A stretch of 64,000 bases of DNA. Source: Gillisia sp. Lineage in GTDB: Bacteria; Bacteroidota; Bacteroidia; Flavobacteriales; Flavobacteriaceae. Under the pieces are notes generated by a model. That model was not told where the DNA came from. It searched no databases and worked only from the letters and a program-made list of their open reading frames with translations. The DNA is taken from assembly GCA_041743165.1 (NCBI GenBank), contig JBGTNH010000020.1:5157-69156 (forward strand), given 5' to 3'. Below, in pieces: positions 2,311 to 60,796 of this stretch. A program made the translations under genes and the position numbers. Position 1 is the first letter of the stretch. Each line of letters begins with the position of its first letter.

Positions 2311-3216
2311 TTAAAAATTGTTGTTTTTGAAGACAAGAATAGCCTTTTCCAGGTCATCTTTATTTTCCATAAATGGCATATGACCTACTTTACTTTCCCA
2401 CATTAAACCTTTTTGAAAGTTTATCCCTTTATAATGATCAGGCCCCACCATCCAGTCTTCGCTGCCATAAAAGAATAACACCGGAACTTCTACATTACCA
2501 GTTTTAACCTTATAATCTTCCCAATAATCTAAAATTGTAAATCCAAGGTTGCTGAAACTACCGTTCCAGTTAGTAATATCTGCATAAGTATCGTCAATAA
2601 GCCTTTCATTTTGTTGATCTTTATAGCCCATTTTCCAAAATGCATTTTGCTCCCTGAGATTATTTATATGAGCCCCTAACATTTCCCTCACCTTTGCAGG
2701 ATCCCCGGAGCAGGGTTTGTTAGCCTTCCCAGTAAACTCGGCAGCTTTGGGACCCCAGCTTTCACAAAAACTTTCCATTATATTAAGAGTACAATTGATC
2801 ATGATCATGCCTTTAATTGAATTGGGAAATCTTTTGTAATACCCCATTTGCAGGATACCTCCAAAAGAGTGTCCAAGGGTTATCCATGATTCATATCCAA
2901 GTTCCTCTCTTAATTCTTCAAAATCCAGCCCCATGCGATCCATGGAATAATCATTGTCGTGATTGCCGGAGGAGCGGCCCACCCCTCTTTGATCCAGATA
3001 GATCATGGTATAATGCTGCTCCAGGAATTCCCCGAAGAATTTTTCAAACCAATAACTGCCAGATCCGGGACCTCCATGAAGGTATAGAACGGGGCTACCG
3101 GAACCTTTAATATTTACAAATAATTGCACCCCGTCTGAGGTTATAATCATTTTTTCTTCAGCCTGCAACCGCAAACCAAAACAGAACATAATTGTTATAA
3201 GAATAAATGTTTTCAT
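2311..3216 (-). CDS. Secreted alpha/beta hydrolase (proline iminopeptidase-like)
   Basis: LHGGPG, DQRGVGRS, GHSFGG nucleophile elbow, GHMPF; signal-peptide start MKTFILIT (ATG 3216). Confidence 0.85.
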   Translation of the reverse strand: MKTFILITIMFCFGLRLQAEEKMIITSDGVQLFVNIKGSGSPVLYLHGGPGSGSYWFEKFFGEFLEQHYTMIYLDQRGVGRSSGNHDNDYSMDRMGLDFEELREELGYESWITLGHSFGGILQMGYYKRFPNSIKGMIMINCTLNIMESFCESWGPKAAEFTGKANKPCSGDPAKVREMLGAHINNLREQNAFWKMGYKDQQNERLIDDTYADITNWNGSFSNLGFTILDYWEDYKVKTGNVEVPVLFFYGSEDWMVGPDHYKGINFQKGLMWESKVGHMPFMENKDDLEKAILVFKNNNF

Positions 3217-3295
3217 CACTTTATGTATTTTTATTATAGAAGAAAAAGAAACCAAAATGTTACAGGTGATTGTAATTTTTTTGGTGCGCATAATG

Positions 3296-3805
3296 TTAAT
3301 TTTGGATTTGACAGCTGCTGAGTCCACAGCTTGAAACGGGTTTTTCCTTTATAATTTCTACTTCAGAATTCTTGCTGTCGCTTCCTGACCATTGTTCCAT
3401 AACTTCAGGTGAAGGCCGGGAATTTATTCCTTCGCCATACACGGTAGCGGTACCATGGGTGTAAAAGGCTTCCCAGTCTACTCCCTGGGGGTCTGTGATC
3501 CAGCTTTTTTGAGATTTGGAATAGCAGCAGGTACATTCGCCCTCCACCCTTATACTGCCTTTGGCCTGTTCCATATTTTGATATACTTCCCGGAGTTCGG
3601 TTTCAGATTCTACCTGCAGACCCAGGTGTTCTATTCCGTTTTCAGCATGACCGGTGGAGATAGCATAATTTATGCGGGGATCTTCAAGCATCCATTTTGC
3701 ATAATCTGGTTTTAAAACGGTTGGCGGCTGGTTAAACAGGGCATTATAAAATGCAAGGCTTTCATTTAGATCCTTAACCCTTACATGTACGTGAAATCTT
3801 TTCAT
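3296..3805 (-). CDS. ArsI/CadI-family VOC metalloenzyme
   Basis: MKRFHVH...DYAKWMLEDPRIN...GIEHLGLQV...TCCYSKSQKSWITDPQGVDWE: family signature with vicinal Cys pair. Confidence 0.88.
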   Translation of the reverse strand: MKRFHVHVRVKDLNESLAFYNALFNQPPTVLKPDYAKWMLEDPRINYAISTGHAENGIEHLGLQVESETELREVYQNMEQAKGSIRVEGECTCCYSKSQKSWITDPQGVDWEAFYTHGTATVYGEGINSRPSPEVMEQWSGSDSKNSEVEIIKEKPVSSCGLSSCQIQN

Positions 3806-6860: not shown

Positions 6861-8777
6861 ATGAAGAACCAAATTTTATTATTGGCAGTTTTGTTCTCGT
6901 TTTTTTCCTGTAAAAAAGAAGAAAAAAAAGAAGAGAATAAAGAGATCGCAACTTATAGCATTGAGCAGTTCATGGACAATGAATCTGTGTTTGGAGGCAG
7001 CTTTTCCCCGGATAACACCAAACTTCTTGTTACAAGCAATCGTTCAGGAATTTTCAATATGTATACAGTGCCAACTTCGGGAGGAGAATTCACGCCGCTA
7101 TCCACATCAGACAGTTCATCAGTTTACGCTATTTCATACTTTCCTGATGATGAAAGAATTCTCTTTAGAATGGACGATAACGGCGATGAGATTTTCAAGA
7201 TTTTTGTCATGGATGGCGATAATGTTACCCGCCTAACCCCCGAAAAAAATGCCCGGGCTATTTTTTACGGATGGGCAAAGGATGGGAAAAGCTTTTATTA
7301 TGGCAGCAATGAAAAAGATGCTCGGTTTATGGATGTATATCAGATGAATACTGCCGATTTTTCCCCTGAACTCATTTACAATAATTCTGAAGGATATAAT
7401 TTCGGTGGAATATCTCCGGACGGAAATTATATGGCAGTTTCTAAATCTATCAATACCAATGATTCAGACCTGTTTATATATAATTTAAAGGATAGGTCAT
7501 TAACTAAGATCAATGACTCCCAAAGCGGAAATTCTTCTCAGGATTTCTCAAAAGACAATAAATATCTCTACTATACTACAGATGAAGGAGAAGAATTTGC
7601 ACGGCTTATGAGATTTAATTTAGAAGATAAATCTTCAGAAGAAGTAATGAAAAAGGATTGGGATATCATGGGAATGGGCTTTAGTGAAAATGGCACTTAC
7701 CGGGTAACTTATATCAACGAAGATGCAGCCAATTCAGTAGAACTTATAAATACTTCAACAGGAAATGAAGTTGATCTTCCTGAATTTGAAAACGCTTTTA
7801 TCACAGGAATCAGTATTTCAAGAGATGAAAAAATGGCGATTCTGAATGTGGGGGGATCTCATACTCCTACCAATTTATATTCATATAATTTCGACACAAA
7901 AGAACAAAAGAAACTTACCCAGGTTTTAAATAATGATATTGATCCTGAAGATCTTGTTGCTGCTGAGGTTATAAGATATGAATCTTTTGATGGCACCGTG
8001 ATACCTGCTATTTATTATAAACCACATAATGCTTCGGCAGACAATAAAGTACCCGCGCTGGTATGGGTTCACGGCGGGCCAGGGGGGCAGTCCCGGCAGA
8101 ATTTTAATTCGGTAATCCAATATTTGGTGAATAATGGTTATGCTGTGCTGGCTGTTAATAACAGAGGTAGTAGCGGTTATGGTAAAACATTCTACCAAAT
8201 GGATGATCAAAACCATGGGGAGAAAGACCTGCAGGATTGTGTAGAAGGTAAAAACTGGCTTGCAGAACAACCCGAGATAGATCCCGAAAAAATCGGCATA
8301 ATCGGAGGTTCCTATGGCGGATTTATGACAATGGCTGCTCTTGCTTTTGCTCCGGAAGAATTTGATGTTGGAGTGAATATTTTTGGGGTAACAAACTGGA
8401 TAAGAACTCTCCAAAGCATCCCGCCCTGGTGGGAAGCTCAAAAAGAAGCTCTTTACCTGGAAATGGGAGATCCTAATACCCAAGACAGTATTCGTTTAAG
8501 GAAAATATCCCCTTTATTTCACACTGAAAATGTTACCAAACCTTTACTGGTATTACAAGGCGCACAGGATCCCAGGGTGTTACAGATAGAATCTGATGAG
8601 ATTGTTGAAAATGTAAGGAAAAACGGAGTCCCGGTGGAGTATGTATTATTTGAAGATGAAGGACATGGATTTGTAAAAAAGGAAAACCAGATCGAGGCAT
8701 ATGAAAAAACCCTTCAGTTCCTGGATACTTATTTAAAAGGAAAGCCTGAAGGCGAAGTGAAAAAAATTAAGACTTAA
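6861..8777 (+). CDS. S9 family peptidase lipoprotein (beta-propeller + catalytic domain)
   Basis: Lipobox FFSC; VHGGPGG, GGSYGG, DPRV, EGHGF. Confidence 0.92.
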   Translation: MKNQILLLAVLFSFFSCKKEEKKEENKEIATYSIEQFMDNESVFGGSFSPDNTKLLVTSNRSGIFNMYTVPTSGGEFTPLSTSDSSSVYAISYFPDDERILFRMDDNGDEIFKIFVMDGDNVTRLTPEKNARAIFYGWAKDGKSFYYGSNEKDARFMDVYQMNTADFSPELIYNNSEGYNFGGISPDGNYMAVSKSINTNDSDLFIYNLKDRSLTKINDSQSGNSSQDFSKDNKYLYYTTDEGEEFARLMRFNLEDKSSEEVMKKDWDIMGMGFSENGTYRVTYINEDAANSVELINTSTGNEVDLPEFENAFITGISISRDEKMAILNVGGSHTPTNLYSYNFDTKEQKKLTQVLNNDIDPEDLVAAEVIRYESFDGTVIPAIYYKPHNASADNKVPALVWVHGGPGGQSRQNFNSVIQYLVNNGYAVLAVNNRGSSGYGKTFYQMDDQNHGEKDLQDCVEGKNWLAEQPEIDPEKIGIIGGSYGGFMTMAALAFAPEEFDVGVNIFGVTNWIRTLQSIPPWWEAQKEALYLEMGDPNTQDSIRLRKISPLFHTENVTKPLLVLQGAQDPRVLQIESDEIVENVRKNGVPVEYVLFEDEGHGFVKKENQIEAYEKTLQFLDTYLKGKPEGEVKKIKT

Positions 8778-48957: not shown

Positions 48958-49743
48958 ATGCTTGCCAAAGAGGAAATGCTCTTAATTGTTTATTTTACAG
49001 TTGTCATACTCCTTTTGACCGCCTTCGCCATCGTTTTCTTTATTACTTTCCAAAGAAGAAAGAATAAACTGTTAATGGAAAAATTTGAGACCGAAAAAAG
49101 ATTTGAAGAAGAACTTACCCAATCCCGGCTCGAAATTCAGGAACAAACTTTAAAAAATGTTGCGTGGGAGTTGCATGATAATATTGGACAGTTACTTTCT
49201 GTAGCCAATATGCAGCTTAACATGCTTAGCGGTAAAGTGGAGGAATCATCACAGGGCCCGGTACTGGAGATCAGAAACATTGTAGCCAGTTCCCTTCAGG
49301 AAGTCAGGTCCCTTTCAAAATCTCTAAATAATGAAGTCATCGATTATTCCGGTCTTGAAGCTTCAGTTAAAAATGAACTTGATAGATTTACACGACTTAA
49401 TATCCTTGATGCCAGAATGGAAGTGACAGGCGAAAGTTTTGAGATCCACCAAAAAGATGCCATCATTTTATTCAGGATACTTCAGGAATTTTTCAGCAAT
49501 GTCATCAAACATTCCAGGGCCAGCTTACTTAGCGTGAATTTTAAATTTGAAGCGGAACATTTAATTATTAATGCCAGGGATAATGGGGTGGGTTTTGAGG
49601 TGGAGGATGTTCAGAAGAATTCGGGTTTACTCAATATGAAAAGTAGAGCAGAGGTCATAAATACTCAATTTGATCTAACCTCTTCCAAAGATGTAGGAAC
49701 TTCCTTATCTTTATCCTATCCTTTAACTACATGTAAAGAATGA
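48958..49743 (+). CDS. HisKA_3-type histidine kinase, single TM, no sensor domain
   Basis: N-terminal TM, WELHDNIGQ H-box, RILQEFFSNVIKH, DNGVGF, GLLNM. Confidence 0.92.
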   Translation: MLAKEEMLLIVYFTVVILLLTAFAIVFFITFQRRKNKLLMEKFETEKRFEEELTQSRLEIQEQTLKNVAWELHDNIGQLLSVANMQLNMLSGKVEESSQGPVLEIRNIVASSLQEVRSLSKSLNNEVIDYSGLEASVKNELDRFTRLNILDARMEVTGESFEIHQKDAIILFRILQEFFSNVIKHSRASLLSVNFKFEAEHLIINARDNGVGFEVEDVQKNSGLLNMKSRAEVINTQFDLTSSKDVGTSLSLSYPLTTCKE

Positions 49744-50372
49744 GTAAATCTGTCATAATAGTTGATGATCACAATCTTTTTGGCCAATCCCTTAAGGGCT
49801 TGATTGGATCCTTTCCAAATTTTGAAGTCCTGGAAGTCTTCAAAAATGGCGGGGAATTGGTGGATTACTTATCTGCGAATAAAAAACTACCCGATATCAT
49901 TTTATTGGATGTGAGAATGCCTGTGATGAATGGGTTTGAAACCATGGATTGGGTTAGGAAAAATCTGCCGGATCAAAAGGTTCTGGCATTAACGATGGAA
50001 CATGATGAGGAAACCATTATTAAAATGATCAAGGCGGGTTGCAGGGGATATTTGTTAAAGGATATTGAGCCCAACGAATTTTTACTTGCGCTTAATTGTG
50101 TGACCGAGAGTGGATTTTACCTTAATGAAGAATCTTCCATTGCTTCATGTTCTTCTAATAAAGATAAAGTTGAAGAAAAACTTTCCCAAAGAGAATTAGA
50201 ATTCCTCAATTTGGCTTGTAGTGAACTTACCTATAAGCAGGTGGCAGATGAAATGAACCTTAGCCCGAAAACCATAGATGGATATCGGGAAAGTCTTTTC
50301 AATAAACTCCGGGTTCGTAGCAGGGTGGGCCTGGTATTGTATGCTGTAAAAAACAATATGGTAGAAGTTTAA
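49740..50372 (+). CDS. NarL/LuxR-family response regulator
   Basis: IVDDH, LLDVRMPVMNG, LTM, GYLLK, LSQRELEFL...TIDGYRESLFNKL. Confidence 0.95.
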   Translation: MSKSVIIVDDHNLFGQSLKGLIGSFPNFEVLEVFKNGGELVDYLSANKKLPDIILLDVRMPVMNGFETMDWVRKNLPDQKVLALTMEHDEETIIKMIKAGCRGYLLKDIEPNEFLLALNCVTESGFYLNEESSIASCSSNKDKVEEKLSQRELEFLNLACSELTYKQVADEMNLSPKTIDGYRESLFNKLRVRSRVGLVLYAVKNNMVEV

Positions 50373-50527: not shown

Positions 50528-52051
50528 GTGATCGATTCGGCCAAAATAGAATTAAGGAATTTAAGATTAAAAGATTACCAGGAGTTAAAAATTTCCATGA
50601 TCAAGAGTTATGGAACAATGGGCGATGAGTACTGGAGTAAGGCTGAAATCAAAACCCTCATCAACAAATTCCCTGACGGGCAGTTCTGTATTGAAATAGA
50701 TGGAAAGATTGCTGGCTGCGCCCTTTCTATTATTGTAGACTACGATAAGTTTGATGCTAACCACAAGTACGAAGATATCATTGGAGGAGAGAATTTCTCT
50801 ACCCACACCAATAATGGAGATGTGCTTTATGGAATTGATGTTTTTATTCACCCCGATTATCGCGGGATGCGCCTGGGAAGAAGATTATATGAAGCCAGAA
50901 AGGAACTTTGCGAGCAGCTCAATTTAAAATCCATAATATTTGGAGGCCGAATTCCAAACTTTGCCGCTTATGCAGATGAATTAACTCCCAAAAAATATAT
51001 TGATAAGGTAAAACTCAAAGAGATCCACGATCCTGTGCTTTCCTTCCAGCTTTCCAATGATTTCCACGTAAAAAAGGTGATCAAAGGTTATTTGCCGGGA
51101 GATGAGGACAGTATGGAATTTGCCACCCTAATGGAGTGGAACAATATTTACTACACCAAGGAGAAGAAGCTTATTGACACCAAAAAAACGGTTGTGCGGC
51201 TGGGATTGGTGCAATGGCAAATGAGGTTGTTTAAGGACTATGACGCCCTGGTGGCCCAGATAGAATTTTTTGTGGATGCGGTGAGCGATTATCAAAGCGA
51301 TTTTATTCTTTTTCCTGAATTGTTCAACGCCCCGTTAATGGCGCAATTTAACCATTTGAATGAAGCTGAAGCCATTCGTGGCCTGTCATCATATACTGAA
51401 AGATTGCTGGAAACATTCAGGGAATTTGCGATAAATTATAATATCAATATCATCACCGGAAGTATGCCCCAGGTTCAGGGAGAGCATATGCATAACGTAG
51501 GATTTTTATGCCGAAGGGATGGTAGCTATGAAAAATATGAGAAACTGCATATCACCCCGGCTGAAGAATCGGCCTGGGGGATGAAAGGCGGATCAATTCT
51601 TCAAACTTATGATACAGATTGCGGTAAGGTAGGTGTCCTGATATGTTATGACGTTGAATTCCCCGAATTACCAAGGCTTCTAGCTGAAGAGGGTATGAAC
51701 ATACTTTTTGTGCCATTTATGACAGATACTCAGAACGGTTATTCCAGGGTGAAGATCTGTGCTCAATCCCGTGCAGTAGAAAATGAATGTTACGTTGCTA
51801 TCGCCGGATCTGTGGGGAATCTTCCAAAGGTGAATAATATGGATATACAATATGCTCAAAGCGCTGTATTCACCCCATCAGATTTTGCTTTTCCTGTAAA
51901 TGGCATCAAGGCCGAAGCTACCCCAAACACAGAAAGTACCCTGCTGGTAGATGTGGATCTTGATTTGTTGAAAGAATTACACGCTTTTGGAAGTGTGAGG
52001 AATATGAAGGACAGGAGAAAAGATCTGTATTCCCTGAAACGGAAAAAATAA
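50528..52051 (+). CDS. Bifunctional GNAT acetyltransferase / carbon-nitrogen hydrolase
   Basis: GNAT: VFIHPDYRGMRLGRRL; nitrilase triad FPE, YEKLH, ICYDVEF; GTG start. Confidence 0.9.
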   Translation: MIDSAKIELRNLRLKDYQELKISMIKSYGTMGDEYWSKAEIKTLINKFPDGQFCIEIDGKIAGCALSIIVDYDKFDANHKYEDIIGGENFSTHTNNGDVLYGIDVFIHPDYRGMRLGRRLYEARKELCEQLNLKSIIFGGRIPNFAAYADELTPKKYIDKVKLKEIHDPVLSFQLSNDFHVKKVIKGYLPGDEDSMEFATLMEWNNIYYTKEKKLIDTKKTVVRLGLVQWQMRLFKDYDALVAQIEFFVDAVSDYQSDFILFPELFNAPLMAQFNHLNEAEAIRGLSSYTERLLETFREFAINYNINIITGSMPQVQGEHMHNVGFLCRRDGSYEKYEKLHITPAEESAWGMKGGSILQTYDTDCGKVGVLICYDVEFPELPRLLAEEGMNILFVPFMTDTQNGYSRVKICAQSRAVENECYVAIAGSVGNLPKVNNMDIQYAQSAVFTPSDFAFPVNGIKAEATPNTESTLLVDVDLDLLKELHAFGSVRNMKDRRKDLYSLKRKK

Positions 52052-52074
52052 TCATTTGCATAAATTTCTATAAG

Positions 52075-52104
52075 ATCGCAGGGCCCATAATTCCTGCGAT
52101 TTTT
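52075..52104 (+). terminator. Intrinsic terminator
   Basis: ATCGCAGG/CCTGCGAT + TTTT. Confidence 0.75.
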
Positions 52105-52120
52105 GATTTTATATAAAAAT

Positions 52121-52153
52121 TTTGTTGAGACTATTGATATTTTTTTACATTTA
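52121..52153 (+). promoter_or_regulatory. Bacteroidota sigma70 promoter of the arg leader
   Basis: TTTG (52121) - 21 nt - TACATTTA (52146); implies a start site near GTG 52158. Confidence 0.55.
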
Positions 52154-52157
52154 CACC

Positions 52158-52220
52158 GTGATTTCAGCATCTCAAATATTAAGACGCATTTCCCTCCGCC
52201 GCACCTACATCCGCCGGTAA
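52158..52220 (+). CDS. Arg-rich leader peptide 1 (MISASQILRRISLRRTYIRR)
   Basis: GTG...TAA; 6 Arg codons in three pairs; below ORF-track size cutoff; 5' of arg operon. Confidence 0.7.
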   Translation: MISASQILRRISLRRTYIRR

Positions 52221-52270
52221 GGATATCTTACGCTCCTATTTGTCTTAATTAATTTGAACTTTTTAAAATT

Positions 52271-52360
52271 TTGAAACACATTACCTCCATATTTAATAAA
52301 CTATATTTCAGTATAATTACTGATATATCTCCAATGCGCAGGCATTACCGTCGCACGTAA
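52271..52360 (+). CDS. Arg-rich leader peptide 2 (MKHITSIFNKLYFSIITDISPMRRHYRRT, or MRRHYRRT from ATG 52334)
   Basis: Open frame from TTG 52271 or ATG 52334 to TAA 52360; 4 Arg in the last 7 codons; stop lies in a CGCAC-GTAA-GTGCG hairpin. Confidence 0.65.
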   Translation: MKHITSIFNKLYFSIITDISPMRRHYRRT

Positions 52361-52448
52361 GTGCGCGCTATCTCTATGGAACTTAGGTGAGTCCGGTTCT
52401 TCTCTCGAAAACATAAATTCATTTTTTTAACCTTAATTTTTTTAGCAG

Positions 52449-53081
52449 ATGAAAATTGTCATTGCTAACAAAACACATGCGAGTTACGCCGATGTAATTT
52501 GCGATACTATTGAAGAATCTGCAAGGGTTCGCGGTACAGGTATTGCCCGAAGGACACCTGAATATATTCTTACAAAAATGGAGAACGGAAACGCCATTAT
52601 TGCGCTGGATGGTGAAAGGTTTGCAGGTTTCTGTTATATCGAGGTGTGGAGCCATGAAAAATTTGTAGCCAATTCGGGCCTTATCGTGCACCCCGATTAC
52701 AGGAATCGAGGTCTGGCTAAGGATATTAAAAAAGCCGTTTTTGAACACTCCCGGAAAAAATATCCCAATGCTAAAATATTTGGAATTACCACCGGCCTGG
52801 CGGTCATGAAGATCAATTACCAACTCGGCTACCAGCCTGTCACTTTTTCTGAACTCACAGATGATGAAAGCTTCTGGGAAGGTTGCCAGACCTGTAAGAA
52901 CTACGATATCCTCACCCGCACCGAGCGCAAAATGTGCCTGTGTACAGGAATGCTTTATGATCCCGTAAAAAGGGAAAAGCCAAAAGAGAAGTCCAAACTC
53001 AATGATAAAGCCTTTACCAGGTTAAAAAGTATCAAGCAAACCCTTTTCTTTAAAAAGGATAAGGAAAAGGAGAAAAACTGA
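52449..53081 (+). CDS. GNAT N-acylglutamate synthase (Bacteroidota ArgA-type)
   Basis: GNAT motif LIVHPDYRNRGLAK; C..C...C.C tail; first gene of the arg operon. Confidence 0.7.
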   Translation: MKIVIANKTHASYADVICDTIEESARVRGTGIARRTPEYILTKMENGNAIIALDGERFAGFCYIEVWSHEKFVANSGLIVHPDYRNRGLAKDIKKAVFEHSRKKYPNAKIFGITTGLAVMKINYQLGYQPVTFSELTDDESFWEGCQTCKNYDILTRTERKMCLCTGMLYDPVKREKPKEKSKLNDKAFTRLKSIKQTLFFKKDKEKEKN

Positions 53082-53134
53082 ATAAAAATGAATCTCAGAT
53101 CCTTATAAAAGGCTGAAGTTTAAAATATTTAAAA

Positions 53135-54322
53135 ATGAAAAAATTAGTATTAGCATATAGTGGCGGCCTCGACACCTCATATTGCGCCAAATATTTATCC
53201 AAAGAAGAAAATTTTGAAGTCCATGCGGTAAGTGTGAATACCGGCGGATTTTCTGCGGAAGAGATACAAAAAATCGGAAATAACGCAAAAATGATTGGCG
53301 CCGCATCATACAGGAACATTAATGCTGTTCCTTCCTTTTATCAAAAAGTGGTGAAATATCTCGTTTTTGGTAATGTTCTGAAAAATGATACATATCCCTT
53401 ATCTGTAAGTGCAGAAAGGATCATACAGGCCATTGAGATCATAAATTATGCAAAGGAAATCAACGCGGAATATATTGCCCACGGAAGTACCGGTGCAGGC
53501 AACGACCAGGTGCGATTTGATATGATCTTCCAGACCCTCGCTCCTTCAATTAAGATCATAACTCCCATAAGAGATAAAAAACTGAGCAGGCAAGAGGAGA
53601 TAGATTATCTCAAGGCAAACGGAGTGGAAATGAACTGGGAAAAGGCCAAATATTCGGTGAACAAAGGACTTTGGGGTACAAGCGTGGGTGGAGCCGAAAC
53701 CCTGACCTCCCACCAGGCTTTGCCAAACGAAGCTTATCCTTCTCAATTGCAGGAAAAACAACCAAAACAAATAAGTCTTGGCTTTTCAAAAGGAGAGCTT
53801 ACAGCTGTAAACGGAGAAGAAAATACGCCGGAAAAAAACATAGAGATCCTTGAGAACATAGCTTCAAAATATGCAATTGGAAGAGATATTCACGTAGGCG
53901 ATACCATCATCGGGATCAAAGGCAGGGTAGGGTTTGAAGCCGCTGCTGCCCTGATCACGATCAAATCCCATCATCTCCTTGAAAAACATACGCTTAGCAA
54001 ATGGCAGCTTCAGCATAAAGATTATTTAGCCAACTGGTATGGAACCCATTTACACGAAGGCCAGTACCTGGATCCCGTGATGCGCGATCTTGAAGCATTT
54101 CTTGATAGCTCGCAGGAGAATGTTAGCGGGACTGTCTACGTAACCCTTCACCCTTATCGCTTTCAGCTGGATGGAATAGAATCTCCCAATGACCTGATGA
54201 ATTCAGGATTTGGAAAATACGGGGAGGAGAATAACGCCTGGACCGCAGAAGATGCCAAAGGATTCATTAAAATCATGTCAAATGCCGGAAAGATCTACCA
54301 ACACGTAAATAATCCATCATGA
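53135..54322 (+). CDS. argG: Argininosuccinate synthase
   Basis: LAYSGGLDTS, AHGSTGAGNDQVRF, KGRVGFEA. Confidence 0.96.
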   Translation: MKKLVLAYSGGLDTSYCAKYLSKEENFEVHAVSVNTGGFSAEEIQKIGNNAKMIGAASYRNINAVPSFYQKVVKYLVFGNVLKNDTYPLSVSAERIIQAIEIINYAKEINAEYIAHGSTGAGNDQVRFDMIFQTLAPSIKIITPIRDKKLSRQEEIDYLKANGVEMNWEKAKYSVNKGLWGTSVGGAETLTSHQALPNEAYPSQLQEKQPKQISLGFSKGELTAVNGEENTPEKNIEILENIASKYAIGRDIHVGDTIIGIKGRVGFEAAAALITIKSHHLLEKHTLSKWQLQHKDYLANWYGTHLHEGQYLDPVMRDLEAFLDSSQENVSGTVYVTLHPYRFQLDGIESPNDLMNSGFGKYGEENNAWTAEDAKGFIKIMSNAGKIYQHVNNPS

Positions 54323-55281
54323 TAGAAGCAGGAATAATTGGCGGTGCCGGGTATACAGCAGGAGAACTTATAAGAATACTTATAAGACATCCCAGAGTAA
54401 AACTGAATTTCATTTACAGTACATCTCAGGTTGGAAAACCTGTCGCTTCCATCCATCAGGATCTTTTAGGAGATACCGATATCGAATTCACTGGGGCGAT
54501 AAACCCGGAGATAGATGTTGTTTTCCTTTGTCTGAGTCATGGGAATTCAAAGAAGTTCTTGCAGGAAAATCATTTTTCAGCAGAAACAAAGATCATTGAC
54601 TTAAGTACCGACTTCAGGATTTTGGATAAAGAACATTCATATGTTTACGGTTTACCGGAACTCAACAGGACGGATATTAGCTCCGCGCAATTTGTTGCCA
54701 ATCCGGGCTGTTTTGCCACCGCTATCAATCTCGCGCTATTGCCTTTGGCTTCTGCCGGATTGATCCGGGATGAGGTTCATGTCAATGCGGTTACGGGTTC
54801 AACCGGCGCGGGAACTTCTTTATCAGAAACTACACACTTCAGCTGGCGGGATAATAATTTTTCTGCCTATAAGGCCTTTGAACATCAGCACCTCGCGGAA
54901 ATCAATCAGAGTCTTAAGTCCCTTCAGGAGAATATTTCAGCAATAAATTTTATTCCCAACCGTGGGAATTTTTCAAGGGGTATTCATTGCACCGCATATA
55001 CAAGGTTTTCAGAAGGTATTGAAGTGGCTATTGAAATATTTGAGAATTACTACAAAGATGCAGCCTTCACATTTGTGGTTGACCAGGACCTTCATCTTAA
55101 ACAGGTGGTCAATACCAACAAATGTCTTATCAGACTTCAGAAGTTTAATGACAAACTGTTGATCACTAGTGTACTTGACAATCTGCTGAAGGGAGCCTCA
55201 GGTCAGGCAGTGCAGAACATGAACCTGATGTTTGGTTTTGAAGAAACCACGGGACTTAATTTGAAGGCCAGTTATTTTTAA
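54319..55281 (+). CDS. argC: N-acyl-gamma-glutamyl-phosphate reductase
   Basis: GGAGYTAGEL, DLSTDFR, YGLPE, ANPGCF, DNLLKGASGQAVQNMN. Confidence 0.95.
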   Translation: MIEAGIIGGAGYTAGELIRILIRHPRVKLNFIYSTSQVGKPVASIHQDLLGDTDIEFTGAINPEIDVVFLCLSHGNSKKFLQENHFSAETKIIDLSTDFRILDKEHSYVYGLPELNRTDISSAQFVANPGCFATAINLALLPLASAGLIRDEVHVNAVTGSTGAGTSLSETTHFSWRDNNFSAYKAFEHQHLAEINQSLKSLQENISAINFIPNRGNFSRGIHCTAYTRFSEGIEVAIEIFENYYKDAAFTFVVDQDLHLKQVVNTNKCLIRLQKFNDKLLITSVLDNLLKGASGQAVQNMNLMFGFEETTGLNLKASYF

Positions 55282-55316
55282 TCTGGGATTTGATTTAATT
55301 CCGAAAAAAGTAAAAT

Positions 55317-56486
55317 ATGAATCTATTTGATGTTTATCCTCTCTACAATATCACTCCGGTAAAAGGAGAAGGGCCTTACGTGTTTGACGAGTCCGGCACA
55401 AAATACCTTGATCTGTACGGAGGTCATGCGGTGATCTCCATTGGTCATTCTCATCCCGAATATGTCAGGGCGATTGGCGAGCAGGTTTCAAAACTGGGAT
55501 TTTACTCCAATTCCATTAAGAACCCGTTGCAGGAAGAACTGGCAGAAAAGCTCGAAAAGTTATCGGGTTGCAAGGATTACAGTCTGTTTTTATGCAATTC
55601 AGGCGCAGAGGCCAATGAGAATGCCTTGAAACTTGCCTCCTTTCACCACGGTAAAAGCAGGGTTATCTATTTTGAGAATGGGTTTCACGGTCGAACCTCC
55701 GGCGTAGTTGCGGTGACCGATAATGAATCGATAAAGGCCCCTTTCAATAAAGATCACAAGGTGACAAAACTCTCCTTTGAAGATGTAACAGGACTCGAGA
55801 AAGAGTTAAGTAAAGGAGATGTGGCTGCAGTTATCTTTGAAGTAATTCAGGGCGTTGGCGGACTCGATGAAGCATCTACTGAATTTTATAGATCTATTGC
55901 TACACTTTGTGAAAAACACAATGCTCTTATGATCGCAGACGAAGTCCAATCGGGTTATGGGAGGACAGGAGATTTCTTTGCCTTTCAAAAACACGGGATA
56001 AGGCCCGATATTATTTCAATCGCTAAAGGAATGGGAAATGGATTTCCTGTTGGCGGGATCCTGATCGATGAGAAGATCAAGGCAAAGCACGGGTTACTGG
56101 GTACAACCTTTGGCGGAAATCATCTGGCCTGTGCTGCGGGAATTGCTGTTTTAGATGTTATTGCTGACGAGAACCTTATGCAAAATGCCGCGAAAATTTC
56201 TGAATATGTAAAAGAAAAAGCAGCCGGGATTCCTGAGATCAAAAGATTGAAAGGACGCGGATTGATGATTGGGCTTGAGTTCGATTTTGAAGTGGCAGCC
56301 TTGAGAAAGGAATTGTTATTCAATCACCGGATCTTTACAGGAGCGGCTTCAAACAAAAAGTTGCTCAGGATCCTTCCACCGCTTAACATTAAAACTGAAA
56401 ATTTTGATGCTTTCTTTGAAGCACTAAAGATCATTTTAGCGCGTCATCCTGAACTTGATTCAGGATCTAACCCAAATAAAAGCTGA
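55317..56486 (+). CDS. argD: Acylornithine aminotransferase (class III)
   Basis: NSGAEANENA, FHGRT, DEVQSGYGRTG, AKGMGNG, TTFGG. Confidence 0.92.
   Translation: MNLFDVYPLYNITPVKGEGPYVFDESGTKYLDLYGGHAVISIGHSHPEYVRAIGEQVSKLGFYSNSIKNPLQEELAEKLEKLSGCKDYSLFLCNSGAEANENALKLASFHHGKSRVIYFENGFHGRTSGVVAVTDNESIKAPFNKDHKVTKLSFEDVTGLEKELSKGDVAAVIFEVIQGVGGLDEASTEFYRSIATLCEKHNALMIADEVQSGYGRTGDFFAFQKHGIRPDIISIAKGMGNGFPVGGILIDEKIKAKHGLLGTTFGGNHLACAAGIAVLDVIADENLMQNAAKISEYVKEKAAGIPEIKRLKGRGLMIGLEFDFEVAALRKELLFNHRIFTGAASNKKLLRILPPLNIKTENFDAFFEALKIILARHPELDSGSNPNKS
56443..56471 (+). repeat. REP-like palindrome
   Basis: GTCATCCTGAACTTGATTCAGGATCTAAC inside the argD 3' end; composite copy at 59444. Confidence 0.8.
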
Positions 56487-56525
56487 AAACATCCAGCTTG
56501 ATGTTAAATGTAAAAAGGTAAAAAA

Positions 56526-57470
56526 ATGAAAAACTACACCCAATTATCAGATATCGAAAACCTGGACCAATTGATTGGCGAAGCTCTGGAATTAAAGAAA
56601 CAGAATTCTGTAGCAAACCTTGGGAAGGGAAAAACATTAGGTATGCTGTTTTTCAACCCGAGCCTGAGAACCCGGTTGAGCACCGAAAAAGCAGCTAAAC
56701 TCCTGGGAATGGACGTGATGGTGATGAATGCCGATAAGGATGGCTGGGCACTGGAGTTTGAAGATGGGGCAGTAATGAATTCCAATAAAGCGGAGCATAT
56801 CAAAGAAGCAGCAGCTGTTCTTTCGCAGTACTGCGATATCATCGCGGTACGGGCATTTCCTGGTCTGGTGGACCGGGAAAAAGATGAACAGGATCTGGTG
56901 ATCAATAGTTTTAAGAAATATGCCAGCGTTCCCATAGTGAATCTCGAGGGGGCGACTAGTCATCCCTTACAGGCACTTACAGATGCGATCACGATAAAGG
57001 AACTCAGCACAAAGCAAAGACCCAATGTCGTCCTTACCTGGGCTCCACATCCCCGGGCGTTACCTCAGGCGGTTCCCAATTCTTTTGTAGAGGTGATGCA
57101 AAGAATGGATGTGGAACTTGTAATCACCAATCCGGAGGGCTATGATCTGGATCCAAGAATTACCAAAAATACGCCGGTAATCCATGATCAGAATGACGCT
57201 TTAAAAGATGCCGATTTTGTTTACATCAAAAACTGGAGCAGTTATGAGCAATACGGGCAGATCCTGAATGAAGACAGGTCGTGGACTTTTGATAAGGAAA
57301 AACTGGATTTGACCAATAATGCCAAAGTGATGCACTGTCTGCCCGTGAGGAGAAATGTTGTGATCTCAGATGAAGTGCTGGACAGCCCAAATTCGGTGGT
57401 CATCCACCAGGCAAATAACCGGACTTTTGCCGCACAGGCGGTGTTGTTGAGATTAGTGAATGGTGAATAG
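56526..57470 (+). CDS. argF: N-acyl(succinyl/acetyl)ornithine carbamoyltransferase ArgF'
   Basis: FNPSLRTRLS, EH..EA, HPLQAL, LTWAPHP, HCLPVRR. Confidence 0.92.
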   Translation: MKNYTQLSDIENLDQLIGEALELKKQNSVANLGKGKTLGMLFFNPSLRTRLSTEKAAKLLGMDVMVMNADKDGWALEFEDGAVMNSNKAEHIKEAAAVLSQYCDIIAVRAFPGLVDREKDEQDLVINSFKKYASVPIVNLEGATSHPLQALTDAITIKELSTKQRPNVVLTWAPHPRALPQAVPNSFVEVMQRMDVELVITNPEGYDLDPRITKNTPVIHDQNDALKDADFVYIKNWSSYEQYGQILNEDRSWTFDKEKLDLTNNAKVMHCLPVRRNVVISDEVLDSPNSVVIHQANNRTFAAQAVLLRLVNGE

Positions 57471-57567
57471 TGATTAGTGAATAGGAAGGATTCTGCGGAA
57501 TTCTGCGAATTCAGCGGGAAATAATCCCAGTGATCTGCGAAAAAAAATCTGCGGTATCAGCGGGAAA
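57454..57567. repeat. TAGTGAA heptamers plus inverted CGCAGA/TTTCCCGC repeat family
   Basis: TAGTGAA TGGTGAA TAGTGAT TAGTGAA TAGGAAG, then two units ending CAGCGGGAAA (reverse complement of the 21.5-kb element). Confidence 0.85.
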
Positions 57568-57587
57568 TCATTAAAATTTCAATTTAA

Positions 57588-58361
57588 ATGAAAGTGCTCA
57601 AAATAATTAAAACGGGAGGTAAGCTTATTGAAAACGAAGATAAGTTCAGGGAATTCCTGAAGGATTTTGCAGCATTGGAAGGTCCTAAGATCCTTGTTCA
57701 CGGAGGAGGAAATTTTGCTACTGAAATGGCTCAAAAACTCGGTTATGAAACCAAAATGGTCGATGGTCGTAGGATCACTGATGCCGATTCCCTCAAAGTA
57801 ATTATCATGACCTATGGCGGGCTGATTAATAAAACCATCGTCGCCCGTTTACAAGCTTTAGACTGTAATGCTATCGGACTTTGTGGTGCAGACGGATTGA
57901 GCATTATCTCAAAAAGAAGGGAACCAAAAGAGATCGATTTTGGATTTGTGGGAGATATTGAAGAAGTAAATGCAGATTTTATTTCATCGCTTTTATCGCA
58001 GGGAATTACGCCGGTATTTTCAGCAATATCCTGCACGAAAGAAGGGGAGCTTCTCAATACCAATGGAGATTCTGTAGCCGCAGAATTAGCTAAAGCAATG
58101 AGCTCAAAATTTGAGACTGAACTCTTCTACTGTTTTGAAAAAAAGGGGGTTCTTTCCGATCCCGCAGATGATAATTCTGTAATCGAACTGATCAACAGAA
58201 AATCCTACCAGAATCTGATGGAGAAAAAGGTTGTCACAGATGGAATGTTGCCAAAGCTTCACAATTGTTTTCAGGCGCTGGAACACGGAGTTTCGAAGAT
58301 CTATCTGGGGGATTCCGGGATGTTGAAGGAGAATGCAAATTATACTAAAATAGTAAACTAA
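57588..58361 (+). CDS. argB: Acylglutamate kinase
   Basis: IKTGG, LVHGGG, GRRITD, LNTNGD, GMLPKL. Confidence 0.93.
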   Translation: MKVLKIIKTGGKLIENEDKFREFLKDFAALEGPKILVHGGGNFATEMAQKLGYETKMVDGRRITDADSLKVIIMTYGGLINKTIVARLQALDCNAIGLCGADGLSIISKRREPKEIDFGFVGDIEEVNADFISSLLSQGITPVFSAISCTKEGELLNTNGDSVAAELAKAMSSKFETELFYCFEKKGVLSDPADDNSVIELINRKSYQNLMEKKVVTDGMLPKLHNCFQALEHGVSKIYLGDSGMLKENANYTKIVN

Positions 58362-59431
58362 TGGAAATCAACCGACTCCAAACAGAAGCCATAGAGCTAT
58401 TAAAAGGACTGATTGAAACCCCTTCTTTTTCCAGGGAAGAAGACCGGTCTGCAAACCTTCTGGAGGAATGGTTTAAGAGATTTGAGATTCCTTTTAACCG
58501 GCACCTGAACAATGTCTGGTCCATCAATAAACATTTTGATCCTTCTAAACCAACGTTGTTGCTCAATTCTCATCACGATACAGTAAAACCGAACTCGGCT
58601 TATACCAATGATCCTTTTGTAGCAGAGGTTAAAGATGGAAAATTATTTGGTCTGGGTAGTAATGATGCCGGGGGATGTCTGGTTTCGCTGTTGGCTACAT
58701 ACACCTGGTATTACAAGCAGGAAGATCTAAACTATAATCTTGTCTTTGCGGGAACGGCTGAAGAGGAAATTAACGGAAATAACGGAATCGCATCTTTGCT
58801 TGCGTTGCTTCCTGAAGTTGATCTGGCCATTGTAGGAGAACCAACTTTGATGCATTTGGCAATTGCCGAAAAAGGTCTGGTGGTTTTTGATGCTGTTGTT
58901 AAAGGTACCCCATCCCATGCCGCACATCCGAACAACAATAACTCGATATATAAGTCGGCTGAAGTTTTGAAATGGTTTGAAAATTTCAAATTTGACAAGG
59001 TCTCCGATGTTCTTGGAGAGGTAAAGCTTACCGTAACCCAGTTCAAAGCGGGGAGTCAGCATAATGTCGTTCCGGCACAGGTAGATATGGTCATTGATGT
59101 TCGGGTAAATGACAAGTATTCCAATGCTGAAGTTGAAAGCATTTTGAAGAAAAACGCCCCGGTAGATGAAATAAAAGCCCGATCCTTAAGACTGAATTCC
59201 TCTTCAATTCCTGCCGATCATGAGTTGGTAATAGCGGGAATCTCGCTTGGAATGAAAACCTACGGGTCCCCCACCTTATCCGATCAGGCGATGCTTAACT
59301 GCCCTTCGGTAAAACTGGGTCCGGGGGATTCAACCCGCTCGCATTCGGCAGACGAATTCATTTATGTGATGGAAGTAGAAGAAGGGATAGAGATGTATAT
59401 TAACCTGCTGGAAAAGGTTTTAAAGGATTAG
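58361..59431 (+). CDS. argE: M20 acylcitrulline/acylornithine deacylase
   Basis: NSHHDTV, GLGSNDAG, AEEE, VGEPT, HSADEF. Confidence 0.85.
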   Translation: MEINRLQTEAIELLKGLIETPSFSREEDRSANLLEEWFKRFEIPFNRHLNNVWSINKHFDPSKPTLLLNSHHDTVKPNSAYTNDPFVAEVKDGKLFGLGSNDAGGCLVSLLATYTWYYKQEDLNYNLVFAGTAEEEINGNNGIASLLALLPEVDLAIVGEPTLMHLAIAEKGLVVFDAVVKGTPSHAAHPNNNNSIYKSAEVLKWFENFKFDKVSDVLGEVKLTVTQFKAGSQHNVVPAQVDMVIDVRVNDKYSNAEVESILKKNAPVDEIKARSLRLNSSSIPADHELVIAGISLGMKTYGSPTLSDQAMLNCPSVKLGPGDSTRSHSADEFIYVMEVEEGIEMYINLLEKVLKD

Positions 59432-59443
59432 AATTATTAACAA

Positions 59444-59495
59444 GTTAGATCCTGAATCCCGCCTGTATATTTCGGGCAGGCAAGTTCAGGATGAC
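59444..59495 (-). repeat. REP-like palindrome with a nested 23-bp hairpin
   Basis: Minus strand GTCATCCTGAACTTG-[CCTGCCCGAAATATACAGGCGGG]-ATTCAGGATCTAAC. Confidence 0.8.
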
Positions 59496-59509
59496 ACATA
59501 ATTAAAAAT

Positions 59510-60796
59510 ATGAAACTCTGGGAAAAAGGAATATCGATAGATAAGAAAATTGAAAAATTTACGGTTGGGAACGATCGCGAACTGGATATGTTCATAGCTA
59601 AATATGATATTATTGCTTCAAAGGCACATGCTAAGATGCTTGAGAAAGTCGGGATCCTCACTTCAGCAGAACTTTCAGATATTTTACGTGAGCTTGATAA
59701 ACTTCAGGCCCAGATCTCTGAAGGAACTTTCAGTATTGGTGAAGAATTTGAGGATGTTCATTCAAAAATTGAATTTGAGCTCACACAGCAATTAGGAGAT
59801 GCAGGAAAAAAGATCCATACAGCCCGCTCCAGGAACGACCAGGTTTTGGTAGCCATGCAGTTATATTTTAAAGAAAATTTGAAAGAAATAATGGGTCAGA
59901 CCAATGCTTTGATCGATGTGCTTTTGAAATTGGCAAATGAACATAAGGAGAAGGTTCTTCCCGGGTATACTCATTTACAGGTGGCAATGCCTTCTTCCTT
60001 CGGACTTTGGTTTTCGGCTTATGGCGAACTATTGATCGATGATCTTTATTTGCTTAATGCAGCGGTGAAAGTTGTGGATCAGAATCCGCTTGGGTCTGCA
60101 GCCGGTTACGGATCCTCATTTCCCATTGACAGAGAATTTACCACCAAGGAACTGGGATTTTCTACATTGAAATACAACGTAGTTGCTGCTCAAATGAGCA
60201 GGGGAAAATCTGAAAGAACAGTTACTTCTGTTATCGCTTCCCTGGCTAATACACTGGCGCGATTTGCGATGGACATCTGTTTATATATGAGTCAGAATTT
60301 TGATTTCATCACTTTCCCTGATGAACTTACAACAGGTTCCAGTATCATGCCCCATAAAAAGAATCCCGATGTTTTCGAACTTATAAGAGGCAAATCAAAT
60401 AAGCTGCAGGCAATATCCAATGAGATCATTCTTATTACCAATAATCTGCCGAGCGGATACCACAGGGACTTTCAGCTAATCAAAGAGAATAGCATTTATT
60501 CCGTAGAAAGCATGAAGGAAATCCTGGATGTTTTCACCCATTCCATTTCCCGGGTTCAGGTAAAGGATGTCGATCTGGGTGATGAGAAATATAAATATCT
60601 GTTTACCGTGGACAGTATAAATGATCTTGTAATGCAGGGTAATTCTTTTCGGGAAGCTTATATGGAAATAGGAAAGCAGGTTCAGGACGATTCTTACCAA
60701 CCCGGAAATTCGATAAAGCACATACATATTGGAAGTAAGGACAATCTTGTGCTGGAAGAAATTGAAAGAAAGAGAAGGGAAGCAGGGGAGAAGTAA
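59510..60796 (+). CDS. argH: Argininosuccinate lyase
   Basis: MKLWEKG, HTARSRNDQ, PGYTHLQ, GSSIMPHKKNPD. Confidence 0.96.
   Translation: MKLWEKGISIDKKIEKFTVGNDRELDMFIAKYDIIASKAHAKMLEKVGILTSAELSDILRELDKLQAQISEGTFSIGEEFEDVHSKIEFELTQQLGDAGKKIHTARSRNDQVLVAMQLYFKENLKEIMGQTNALIDVLLKLANEHKEKVLPGYTHLQVAMPSSFGLWFSAYGELLIDDLYLLNAAVKVVDQNPLGSAAGYGSSFPIDREFTTKELGFSTLKYNVVAAQMSRGKSERTVTSVIASLANTLARFAMDICLYMSQNFDFITFPDELTTGSSIMPHKKNPDVFELIRGKSNKLQAISNEIILITNNLPSGYHRDFQLIKENSIYSVESMKEILDVFTHSISRVQVKDVDLGDEKYKYLFTVDSINDLVMQGNSFREAYMEIGKQVQDDSYQPGNSIKHIHIGSKDNLVLEEIERKRREAGEK

Follow-up and report, generated by a model that had tools for sequence, protein, structure and literature searches.

Arginine biosynthesis in bacteria is the textbook example of control by a repressor (ArgR), and the classical leader attenuators cover Trp, His, Leu, Thr, Ile/Val and Phe. 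Leader open reading frames (ORFs) also control Rho-dependent termination, as in the case of tnaC, mgtL/mgtA, mgtP/mgtCBR and speFL. The fungal arginine attenuator peptide, encoded by an upstream ORF (uORF) of arg-2/CPA1, senses free arginine by its sequence, has no run of Arg codons, and blocks scanning ribosomes. In Flavobacterium psychrophilum, leader-peptide attenuation has been described for the ilv (ilvE), his (hisG), trp and aromatic operons, each with the ordinary features of such systems (PMC9723704). In Staphylococcus aureus, the leader peptide rbfL detects a shortage of arginine by the slow decoding of Arg codons (PMC13009471). It uses the rare AGA/AGG codons, adjoins the start of rbf, and represses translation of this biofilm regulator by occlusion of the ribosome-binding site (PMC13009471). 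An Arg-codon leader peptide in front of an arginine biosynthesis operon was not found described in Rfam or in the literature that could be searched (earlier notes from comparative genomics may exist). The subject of the present analysis is the leader of the arg operon in a 64,000-nucleotide stretch of DNA from Gillisia sp. (contig JBGTNH010000020.1), the whole of which is called the window. With a probability of about 0.6, judged from comparative sequence analysis, this leader acts as a ribosome-mediated sensor of arginine (Arg-tRNA) built from leader peptides, with a non-canonical and possibly Rho-dependent output.

The elements of the leader, in window coordinates, are as follows.

52104-52448, plus strand: arg leader, 345 nt from the end of the upstream gene's terminator to the start of the operon
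52121-52153, plus strand: promoter of the Bacteroidetes sigma-A type (consensus TAnnTTTG), with the -33 element TTTG at 52121-52124 and the -7 box TACATTTA at 52146-52153
52158-52220, plus strand: uORF1, GTG start at 52158, TAA at 52218-52220, 20 codons, peptide MISASQILRRISLRRTYIRR, then stop
52173-52256, plus strand: P0, a long-range helix of the minimum-free-energy folds, in which CAAATATTAAGAC (52173-85) pairs with GTCTTAAT..TTTG (52242-56)
52271-52360, plus strand: uORF2, probable TTG start, 29 codons, peptide (M)KHITSIFNKLYFSIITDISPMRRHYRRT, then stop (TAA at 52358-52360)
52308-52323, plus strand: H0, a hairpin inside uORF2, TCAGTA-TAAT-TACTGA
52352-52365, plus strand: H1 hairpin, CGCAC-GUAA-GUGCG, with the arms CGCAC (52352-56) and GTGCG (52361-65)
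52378-52400, plus strand: H2 hairpin, GGAACU-(UA)-GG-UGAGU-CC-GGUUCU, with a covarying stem and the invariant loop/apex AGGUGAGUCC
52401-52448, plus strand: G-poor A/U-rich tract with two U7 runs (52422-28 and 52437-43), the proposed zone of premature termination and region of initiation without Shine-Dalgarno (SD) pairing
52449-60796, plus strand: arg operon of eight genes, GNAT-argG-argC-argD-argF'-argB-argE-argH

The leader was compared in 80 orthologous loci, one per species, from ~40 genera of Flavobacteriaceae, which are the best 80 of 597 candidate GNAT matches; leader counts refer to 79 leaders (the window and 78 of the 80 genomes). The initial annotation of this DNA had proposed control by Arg-tRNA-sensing leader peptides and had named the conservation of Arg-rich uORFs upstream of orthologous operons as a check on it. 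The check is positive. An Arg-tailed uORF on the plus strand, ending 86-106 nt (about 90) before the GNAT start, is present in 78 of the 79 leaders. The commonest tail is ...RRRP-stop or ...RRRRP-stop, and the nearest relatives of the window have ...RRT-stop. The last ten codons of the uORF contain 3.9 Arg on average (39%, 78 leaders), as compared with 3.0-3.8% of the codons in long ORFs. When the strands were compared in 81 proximal regions, at least three Arg among the last six codons were found in 56 regions on the plus strand and in 3 on the minus strand, the value for shuffled sequences being 1.3%. For the window leader itself, chance was estimated with dinucleotide-preserving shuffles (n=1000), scoring ORFs of 15 codons or more whose last 8 codons include 4 or more Arg. 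Two such ORFs are present in the leader; the shuffles give at least one in 0.4% and two in 0/1000.

The codons used are as distinctive as the residues. CGT/CGC account for 94% of the Arg codons in the leaders and for 21-24% in the genes, where AGA/AGG dominate. CGU/CGC codons are decoded by the inosine-containing tRNA-Arg and, because the leader Arg codons are nearly all of this kind, the sensing codons would all belong to this tRNA. The two Arg codons before the invariant CGC show an entropy of 0.11-0.94 bits at positions 1 and 2, versus 1.0-1.24 bits at position 3. Arg runs also persist in the distal uORFs without shared nucleotide similarity.

The number of uORFs varies between the lineages. 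Roughly half of the genomes (Maribacter, Flagellimonas, Zobellia, Pricia, Arenibacter and others) have a single uORF. In at least 23 genomes there is also a distal uORF, which ends 225-241 nt upstream in RRRR-stop, RRRCR-stop, RRCAF-stop or RR-stop. The tandem arrangement occurs in Gillisia, Salinimicrobium, Christiangramia, Salegentibacter, Winogradskyella, Gelidibacter, Lacinutrix, Psychroserpens, Mariniflexile and others, and a double leader like that of the window is present in the cultured relative Christiangramia flava JLT2011. The tandem design is real but lineage-specific. The idea of a double attenuator thus stands for these lineages and not as a general rule, since about half of the genomes have one uORF.

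The first uORF is tied to the promoter by a fixed distance. Bacteroidetes transcription starts a few bases after the -7 box. The box is kept in the relatives (TACATTTG/A, TACTTTTG), at -300 to -313 in the double-uORF loci and at -176 to -205 in the single-uORF loci. From the box to the ATG/GTG there are exactly 7 nt in the single-uORF lineages and exactly 4 nt in the double-uORF lineages (uORF1), and the ORF opened there runs for 25-28 codons (single) or 17-24 codons (double) into the Arg tail. In the window, the GTG of uORF1 likewise lies 4 nt past the box. Since the start of transcription falls a few bases after the -7 box, the first uORF is probably leaderless or has a leader of up to about 5 nt, the start site being placed from the promoter box. 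With the promoter 4 nt before uORF1, ribosomes could therefore load at or near the 5' end. The consensus TAnnTTTG of this box is quoted in PMC9723704.

The uORF1 beginning with GTG 52158 is present as first annotated, and its supposed leaderless nature, deduced from the position of the promoter, agrees with the -33 TTTG and with TACATTTA lying 4 nt before the GTG. Its six Arg codons form three pairs (AGA CGC / CGC CGC / CGC CGG). Homologues of the form (V/M)IS..QII.P.F.FRPR.RR-stop are found in the loci L001-L010, and other genera have unrelated distal uORFs with Arg tails (..RRRR-stop or ..RRRCR-stop). Taken together, the conserved Arg-tailed uORFs and the fixed promoter spacing speak for leader-peptide control by Arg-tRNA sensing, as first proposed. 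It is well supported by these comparisons that leader peptides, probably translated, would report the charging of Arg-tRNA to the operon, through Arg codons located in and before H1 and, in the case of uORF1, inside P0.

uORF2 is homologous to the single leader ORF (MK..HI....P.R.F.P.RRRP-stop) of other Flavobacteriaceae. Its tail reads ATG (52334) CGC AGG CAT TAC CGT CGC ACG TAA and contains 4 Arg within the last 7 codons. The tail and the stop at 52360 were correctly given in the initial annotation, but the start is more likely TTG 52271 than the ATG at 52334. Two observations make the TTG the probable start: the peptide read from it (KHITSIF...) lines up with the N-termini (MK..HI..) of the peptides of single uORFs, and the codon at this place is kept as TTG/GTG. 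The ATG 52334 is probably internal, as V/L/I stand at the aligned position in the relatives. In the double lineages, the proximal uORF opens at a conserved TTG or GTG (ATG once) and in 12 loci from different genera has exactly 31 codons. The sequence preceding uORF2 (52257-52264, TTTGAACTTTTT) looks like a decayed form of the -7 region (TTTGTACATTTG) found in other genera ahead of the single uORF. Because of this resemblance, it is suggested that a module of promoter and uORF was duplicated to give the tandem leader. The possibility of a second promoter in front of uORF2 was considered and rejected: there is a decayed -7-like box (AACTTTTT), but a consistent box is absent across the double-uORF loci. 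The minus strand contains an ORF of 25 codons at 52345-52422 (MNLCFREKNRTHLSSIEIARTYVRR, then stop), and its end, also rich in Arg, is a mirror effect of the CGN-rich sequence.

The two uORFs are connected by the helix P0, which encloses the Arg codons and the stop of uORF1. A part of it, ATTAAGAC (52178-85) paired with GTCTTAAT (52242-49), had been recognized initially; the pairing is present, belongs to the longer P0, and covaries. The 3' arm of P0 stops 12 nt (RNAduplex) to 14 nt (TTTG 52253-56) before the start of uORF2. Compensatory variants are found in close relatives (AAGGC/GCCTT in L001, ATTACC/GGTAAT in L006). In 17 double-uORF loci, the duplex energy ranges from -9 to -16 kcal/mol (mean z of -2.5 versus shuffles), and in 16 of the 17 the 3' arm ends 1-12 nt upstream of the start of the proximal uORF. 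A comparable long-range pairing of A-rich with U-rich segments is seen in the unrelated double leaders L008, L020, L034 and L056. Two other pairings listed in the initial annotation exist in the window but are not conserved. The hairpin at the uORF1 stop (GTAAG 52217-21 / CTTAC 52227-31) is restricted to the window and partly to L001, and the pairing GCGCA 52336-40 / TGCGC 52362-66 is likewise not conserved.

At the end of uORF2, the 5' arm of H1 consists of the last Arg codon and the next codon, and the loop usually holds the stop codon. Most genomes have CGCCC-GUAA-GGGUG as the H1 hairpin, as against CGCAC-GUAA-GUGCG in the window. The compensatory change from C-G to A-U divides the loci 51 vs 8 by arm pairs counted by hand, and 68 vs 9 in the model alignment (see below). 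The hairpin initially described at the uORF2 stop is thus present, conserved and covarying. The H1 stem is also retained in the loci in which the stop lies 9 nt further downstream (e.g. L007, ..RRTFVRV-stop); because the helix survives displacement of the stop, H1 can be regarded as an RNA element in its own right.

An A/U-rich spacer of ~12 nt separates H1 from H2, the best-conserved element of the leader, which had no place in the initial annotation; neither had H0. H2 is composed of a 6-bp stem, a bulged A (UA in the window), a GG:CC segment and a 5-nt loop. The apex AGGUG(A/U/C)GUCC is found in 78 of the 80 genomes, and its distance from the start codon hardly varies (H2 to ATG, median 50 nt, interquartile range 47-51). 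The arms occur in 21 combinations; when counted by hand, the second pair is C-G in 34 sequences and A-U in 43. A covariance model (R1) was built from the leader sequences and searched against the genome loci and the window. In its alignment, 91% of the cells of H1 and H2 are paired, 7 pairs are changed on both sides, and 0/500 shuffles reach the observed values, although related sequences can beat such shuffles even without structure. The alignment also mis-registers the left arm of H2 by one base in sequences of the GGAAC type, and the pairs were recounted by hand. For both reasons, the hand count is the better basis. On these arm pairs, H1 and H2 are genuine RNA helices. In the case of H0, stem variants in relatives appear by eye to be compensatory (TCAGGA/TCCTGA in L006 and L007, TCAGAA/TTCTGA in L003 and L010).

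The model R1 gives one match per genome locus (E from 1e-6 to 1e-21), with the exception of L072, in which neither hairpin was found. In the window it matches once, at 52324-52416 with 65 bits (the uORF2 tail is included), and no second copy of the motif was found by this search. A pattern scan of metagenome contigs returned 27 true hairpins, 26 of them before GNAT-argG(-argC) and one on a contig that is too short. Across the 80 loci and the metagenome contigs, H2 is seen only upstream of arg operons. The matches of the 16-nt H2 pattern elsewhere (many of L082-L200) mostly lie in the coding sequence of ABC-transporter Walker A motifs (..V/I-G-E-S-G-S-G-K-S, GTAGGTGAGTCCGGTTCCGGTAAATC) and were discarded as chance matches unrelated to the leader. 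An Rfam 15 scan of 51500-53000 up to E = 10, with the T-box and the amino-acid leaders included, gave chance matches only.

The partner of the H2 loop was sought in the RNA itself. No complement of the loop in cis was found between -330 and +400. The segment GGACACCT in codons 35-37 of the window GNAT gene was rejected as a partner because it is not conserved in the relatives. A T-box-like pairing of the loop with the 3' end of a tRNA was also rejected; the sequence is unfit, and there is no tRNA gene in the window. In L002 (Salinimicrobium sediminis, 2383-2471) the H2 stem is kept (GGAACT/AGTTCC) and so are the uORFs, and the loop is swapped for TTTTTGA. The H2 apex contains UAGGUGA (52386-52392 in the window, the same site in all loci), with UAG and UGA in two frames. 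As these stops fall in different frames of H2 and H1 contains the uORF stop, H1-H2 may block reading in all three frames.

The initial annotation saw no canonical U-tailed terminator, and the terminator search, the RNAalifold predictions and the counts of U after H2 lead to the same result. No G+C-rich hairpin followed by a U tract is present between the uORFs and GNAT, the sole terminator-like site belonging to the upstream gene. When 30 single-uORF leaders were folded with RNAalifold, only H1 and H2 were predicted, with no terminator between H2 and the ATG. H2 itself was rejected as an intrinsic terminator for most lineages, with a mean energy of -7 kcal/mol and few U after the stem: the 8 nt after H2 contain on average 1.3 U (ATTTCC type) or 3.0 U (GGTTC type), and at least 5 U are found in 6 of the 79 loci only. 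No conserved alternative pairing of the H1 3' arm, the spacer or H2, of the kind expected for an antiterminator, was found. A candidate formed by the 5' region of uORF2 with the 5' arm and loop of H2 is present in the window fold and was rejected, as it is not conserved in the relatives. In respect to composition, the last 20 nt of the uORF contain 41-56% C and 20-28% G, the G content falls to 1-10% from +40 to +80 past the uORF stop, and T runs are located 22-34 nt past H2 in most loci, with one or two such runs in the tract before the start codon. The C-rich uORF end and the nearly G-free tract after H2 would be compatible with the loading of Rho.

In the proposed mechanism, poor charging of Arg-tRNA(ICG) would cause ribosomes to stall on the CGY runs. 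The stalled ribosome would cover the C-rich 3' half of the uORF and keep H1 open, and P0 as well in the case of uORF1. With plentiful arginine, the ribosome would reach the stop and leave; H1 and P0 could then fold and a naked leader would be exposed. In such a leader, transcription would end prematurely in the tract of U runs that separates H2 from the start codon. Factor-dependent termination, most likely by Rho, is proposed because both the hairpin-plus-U-tract terminator and the antiterminator are missing. H2 might serve as a pause or recognition element. Stalling would prevent the premature termination and switch the operon on; as the arg operon is biosynthetic, stalling must activate, by codon starvation and not by the free amino acid. 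In the double lineages, translation of uORF1, or stalling on it, may open the initiation region of uORF2, and such a two-stage sensor is suggested by the 3' arm of P0 adjoining the uORF2 start.

Several points weigh against this reading. The Rho step is a guess by exclusion, and the C-rich part of the uORF still contains 20-28% G. A mechanism based on Rho alone would not require H1 or H2. H2 begins ~12 nt beyond the leading edge of a ribosome stalled on the Arg codons, so that the proposed mechanism does not account for the route from stalling to output, and the invariant H2 loop points to a trans-acting partner. Leaderless or SD-less initiation at GTG or TTG is unusual. In L072, where neither hairpin was found, two uORFs with some Arg remain. 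Conversely, in two metagenome loci on the minus strand, L181 (~8000-8500) and L182 (~2800-3300), H1 and H2 are intact and the proximal uORF has no Arg run (..FICFFRPLWAFYFRK, then stop). Both loci have a distal uORF ~170 nt upstream (MKN..LTPPPTT(Y/F)RMRRFVR-stop) with a CGC CGC ... GUGCG helix of its own. Because the hairpins are kept there after loss of the proximal Arg run, H1-H2 appears separable from this run, which suggests that the pair can function either with only the distal uORF or without depending on it. A further idea, which we put forward as possible but doubtful, is that H1-H2 forms a new output module, in which a ribosome on the Arg codons would decide whether the platform forms, and the invariant loop UAGGUGAGUCC would be read by a trans-acting partner. 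The candidates for such a partner could be an RNA-binding protein of the arginine pathway, a termination factor, or the anti-Shine-Dalgarno tail that the flavobacterial ribosome normally keeps sequestered. If this were true, the arg control of Flavobacteriaceae would be a mechanism without a described counterpart.

The same two hairpins could also be the true regulator, bound by an arginine-responsive protein, by the ribosome (through the SD-like AGGUGA) or by a small ligand, with the uORF as an accessory for ribosome delivery or as a second input. The invariance of the H2 apex over a covarying stem, the tight spacing to the ATG, the restriction of H2 to arg operons and the lack of a cis complement of the loop are all expected in this case, as is the persistence of H1 and H2 in L181 and L182, where the proximal uORF is not Arg-rich. 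AGGUGA of the loop is complementary to the 3' tail of 16S rRNA (the window itself contains no rRNA), and the combination of a stem, a bulged A, GG:CC and a small loop resembles known protein-binding hairpins. However, two short hairpins offer little space for a ligand pocket, no Rfam family matches them, and in L002 the loop sequence is gone, yet the stem and the uORFs are kept. Moreover, a pure RNA-protein switch leaves unexplained the Arg runs of 78 of the 79 leaders and those of the distal uORFs, which lack H1 and H2. We therefore regard this explanation as unlikely, while a protein- or ribosome-binding role of H1-H2 may coexist with codon sensing. Control at the level of DNA, with the H2 inverted repeat or a site near the promoter as the operator of ArgR or another repressor, deserves still less credit. 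H2 is indeed an inverted repeat in DNA and a weak ARG-box-like match is found at 52102-52119, but matches to the E. coli-type consensus with at most 3 mismatches are no commoner than chance (45 found, 55 expected; this consensus may not be the Bacteroidetes motif), and H2 lies ~220 nt downstream of the promoter. The arms of H2 compensate (21 variants) and the asymmetric, strand-specific spacer is invariant, which is the signature of an RNA helix and makes a DNA operator highly improbable.

Two explanations retain translation of the uORFs and dispense with the sensing of codons. The nascent peptide ...F.P.RRRP could sense free arginine, as TnaC, the fungal arginine attenuator peptide and SpeFL respond to their ligands, with the arrest at the stop lowering downstream expression. 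The conservation extends beyond the Arg residues (P.R.F.P..RRRP-stop), the stop codon lies within a conserved hairpin loop, and 67 of the 79 leaders finish with CGC CCN stop, i.e. with Arg-Pro-stop. TnaC likewise ends with Arg-Pro-stop, and Pro-stop is a poor context for termination. On the other hand, the window and its nearest relatives end with RRT-stop instead of RP-stop, at least five loci (e.g. L002, L003, L007, L010, L019) have the stop 9 nt downstream (..RRTFVRV-stop) with H1 kept, and the tails of uORF1 are variable (RR-stop, RRRR-stop, RCR-stop, CAF-stop). The P/F/S/T residues may just mirror a C-rich, G-poor RNA. In addition, stalls at the stop and stalls at Arg codons 3-12 nt upstream would leave a near-identical ribosome footprint, yet opposite outputs are needed. 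A peptide sensor is for these reasons quite improbable, although it may apply in the lineages that end with RP-stop. It is also conceivable that the uORFs are translated but do not sense arginine, serving for ribosome loading at the 5' end in protection of the long leader, or for a boost of downstream translation, with the Arg tails as a by-product of the GC-rich H1 and the C-rich sequence. The CGC of the last Arg codon is fixed by H1, and a C-rich composition favours CGN and CCN codons. But the Arg runs reach 2-4 codons upstream of H1, into sequence free of pairing constraints, where the variation is confined to third positions; the distal uORFs have many Arg in the absence of H1, and an arginine biosynthesis operon lies downstream in every case. 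Such a general role of the uORFs is thus very unlikely, and the sensing of Arg-tRNA charging by leader peptides is preferred.

The genes downstream of the leader, and the terminator by which its 5' limit is set, are as follows.

52072-52103, plus strand: intrinsic terminator of the upstream GNAT/CN-hydrolase gene, a 12-bp stem followed by a T run; it sets the 5' limit of the arg leader region
52449-53081, plus strand: GNAT (argA-like), the first gene of the operon
53135-54322, plus strand: argG
54319-55281, plus strand: argC
55317-56486, plus strand: argD
56526-57470, plus strand: argF' (N-acetylornithine carbamoyltransferase)
57588-58361, plus strand: argB
58361-59431, plus strand: argE-like deacylase (ArgE/DapE type)
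59510-60796, plus strand: argH

The upstream gene (50528-52051) encodes a GNAT acetyltransferase domain fused to a carbon-nitrogen hydrolase domain, the latter with weak similarity to N-carbamoylputrescine amidase, and ends in a canonical terminator. It is not kept beside the arg operon in other genomes; the upstream neighbour in Christiangramia flava is a threonine dehydratase. Two genes upstream of the leader, at 48958-50372 on the same strand, there is a two-component pair composed of a HisKA_3 histidine kinase and a response regulator of the LuxR/GerE type. By its GNAT protein, the organism falls among the Flavobacteriaceae in the neighbourhood of Salinimicrobium, Gillisia and Antarcticibacterium. 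The window sequence occurs in DNA metagenomes only, and a Tara locus is without RNA runs.

If confirmed, the arg leader would make it practicable to study attenuation where no intrinsic terminator exists, in a phylum whose translation starts without Shine-Dalgarno pairing, and the arg leaders of many marine and soil Flavobacteriaceae would have a ready annotation. The near-exclusive use of CGU/CGC makes the sensing of isoacceptor-specific starvation directly testable, and the missing factor could be sought by way of the invariant H2 loop.

In respect to known systems, the leader resembles those of the Rho type (tnaC, mgtL) in its long untranslated spacer without an intrinsic terminator and in the C content of its RNA, which is high where the ORF ends and beyond. 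The Arg-Pro-stop end is shared with tnaC and the logic of hungry codons with mgtL/mgtP. The conserved H1/H2 pair, in contrast, has no counterpart in these leaders, and Rho dependence is a proposal here. The fungal arginine attenuator peptide has no sequence similarity to the arg leader; it is alike in being a uORF on a gene of the arginine pathway with arrest at or near the uORF stop. Like rbfL, the leader encodes a bacterial peptide with Arg codons, for which the sensing of arginine is proposed here; unlike rbfL (PMC13009471), it uses CGU/CGC codons, has a biosynthesis operon as the target, and its uORF stop lies ~90 nt from the start codon. The differences from the classical attenuators are the amino acid itself, the lack of a terminator hairpin with U tract, of a mutually exclusive antiterminator and of an Rfam match among what was found, the start 4-7 nt past the -7 box, the two tandem ORFs of many lineages, and the extra hairpin with an invariant loop. 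The arg leader has the logic of a leader-peptide attenuator but not the classical terminator and antiterminator. With trpL, hisL, leuL, thrL, ilvL, pheL, the Bacteroid-trp leader and the ilvE/hisG leaders (PMC9723704), it shares a short leader ORF with cognate codons clustered near its end, the overlap of these regulatory codons with an RNA helix, and a stop beside or within the structure; if this likeness is confirmed, arginine would join the amino acids that are sensed through tRNA charging at a biosynthetic operon.

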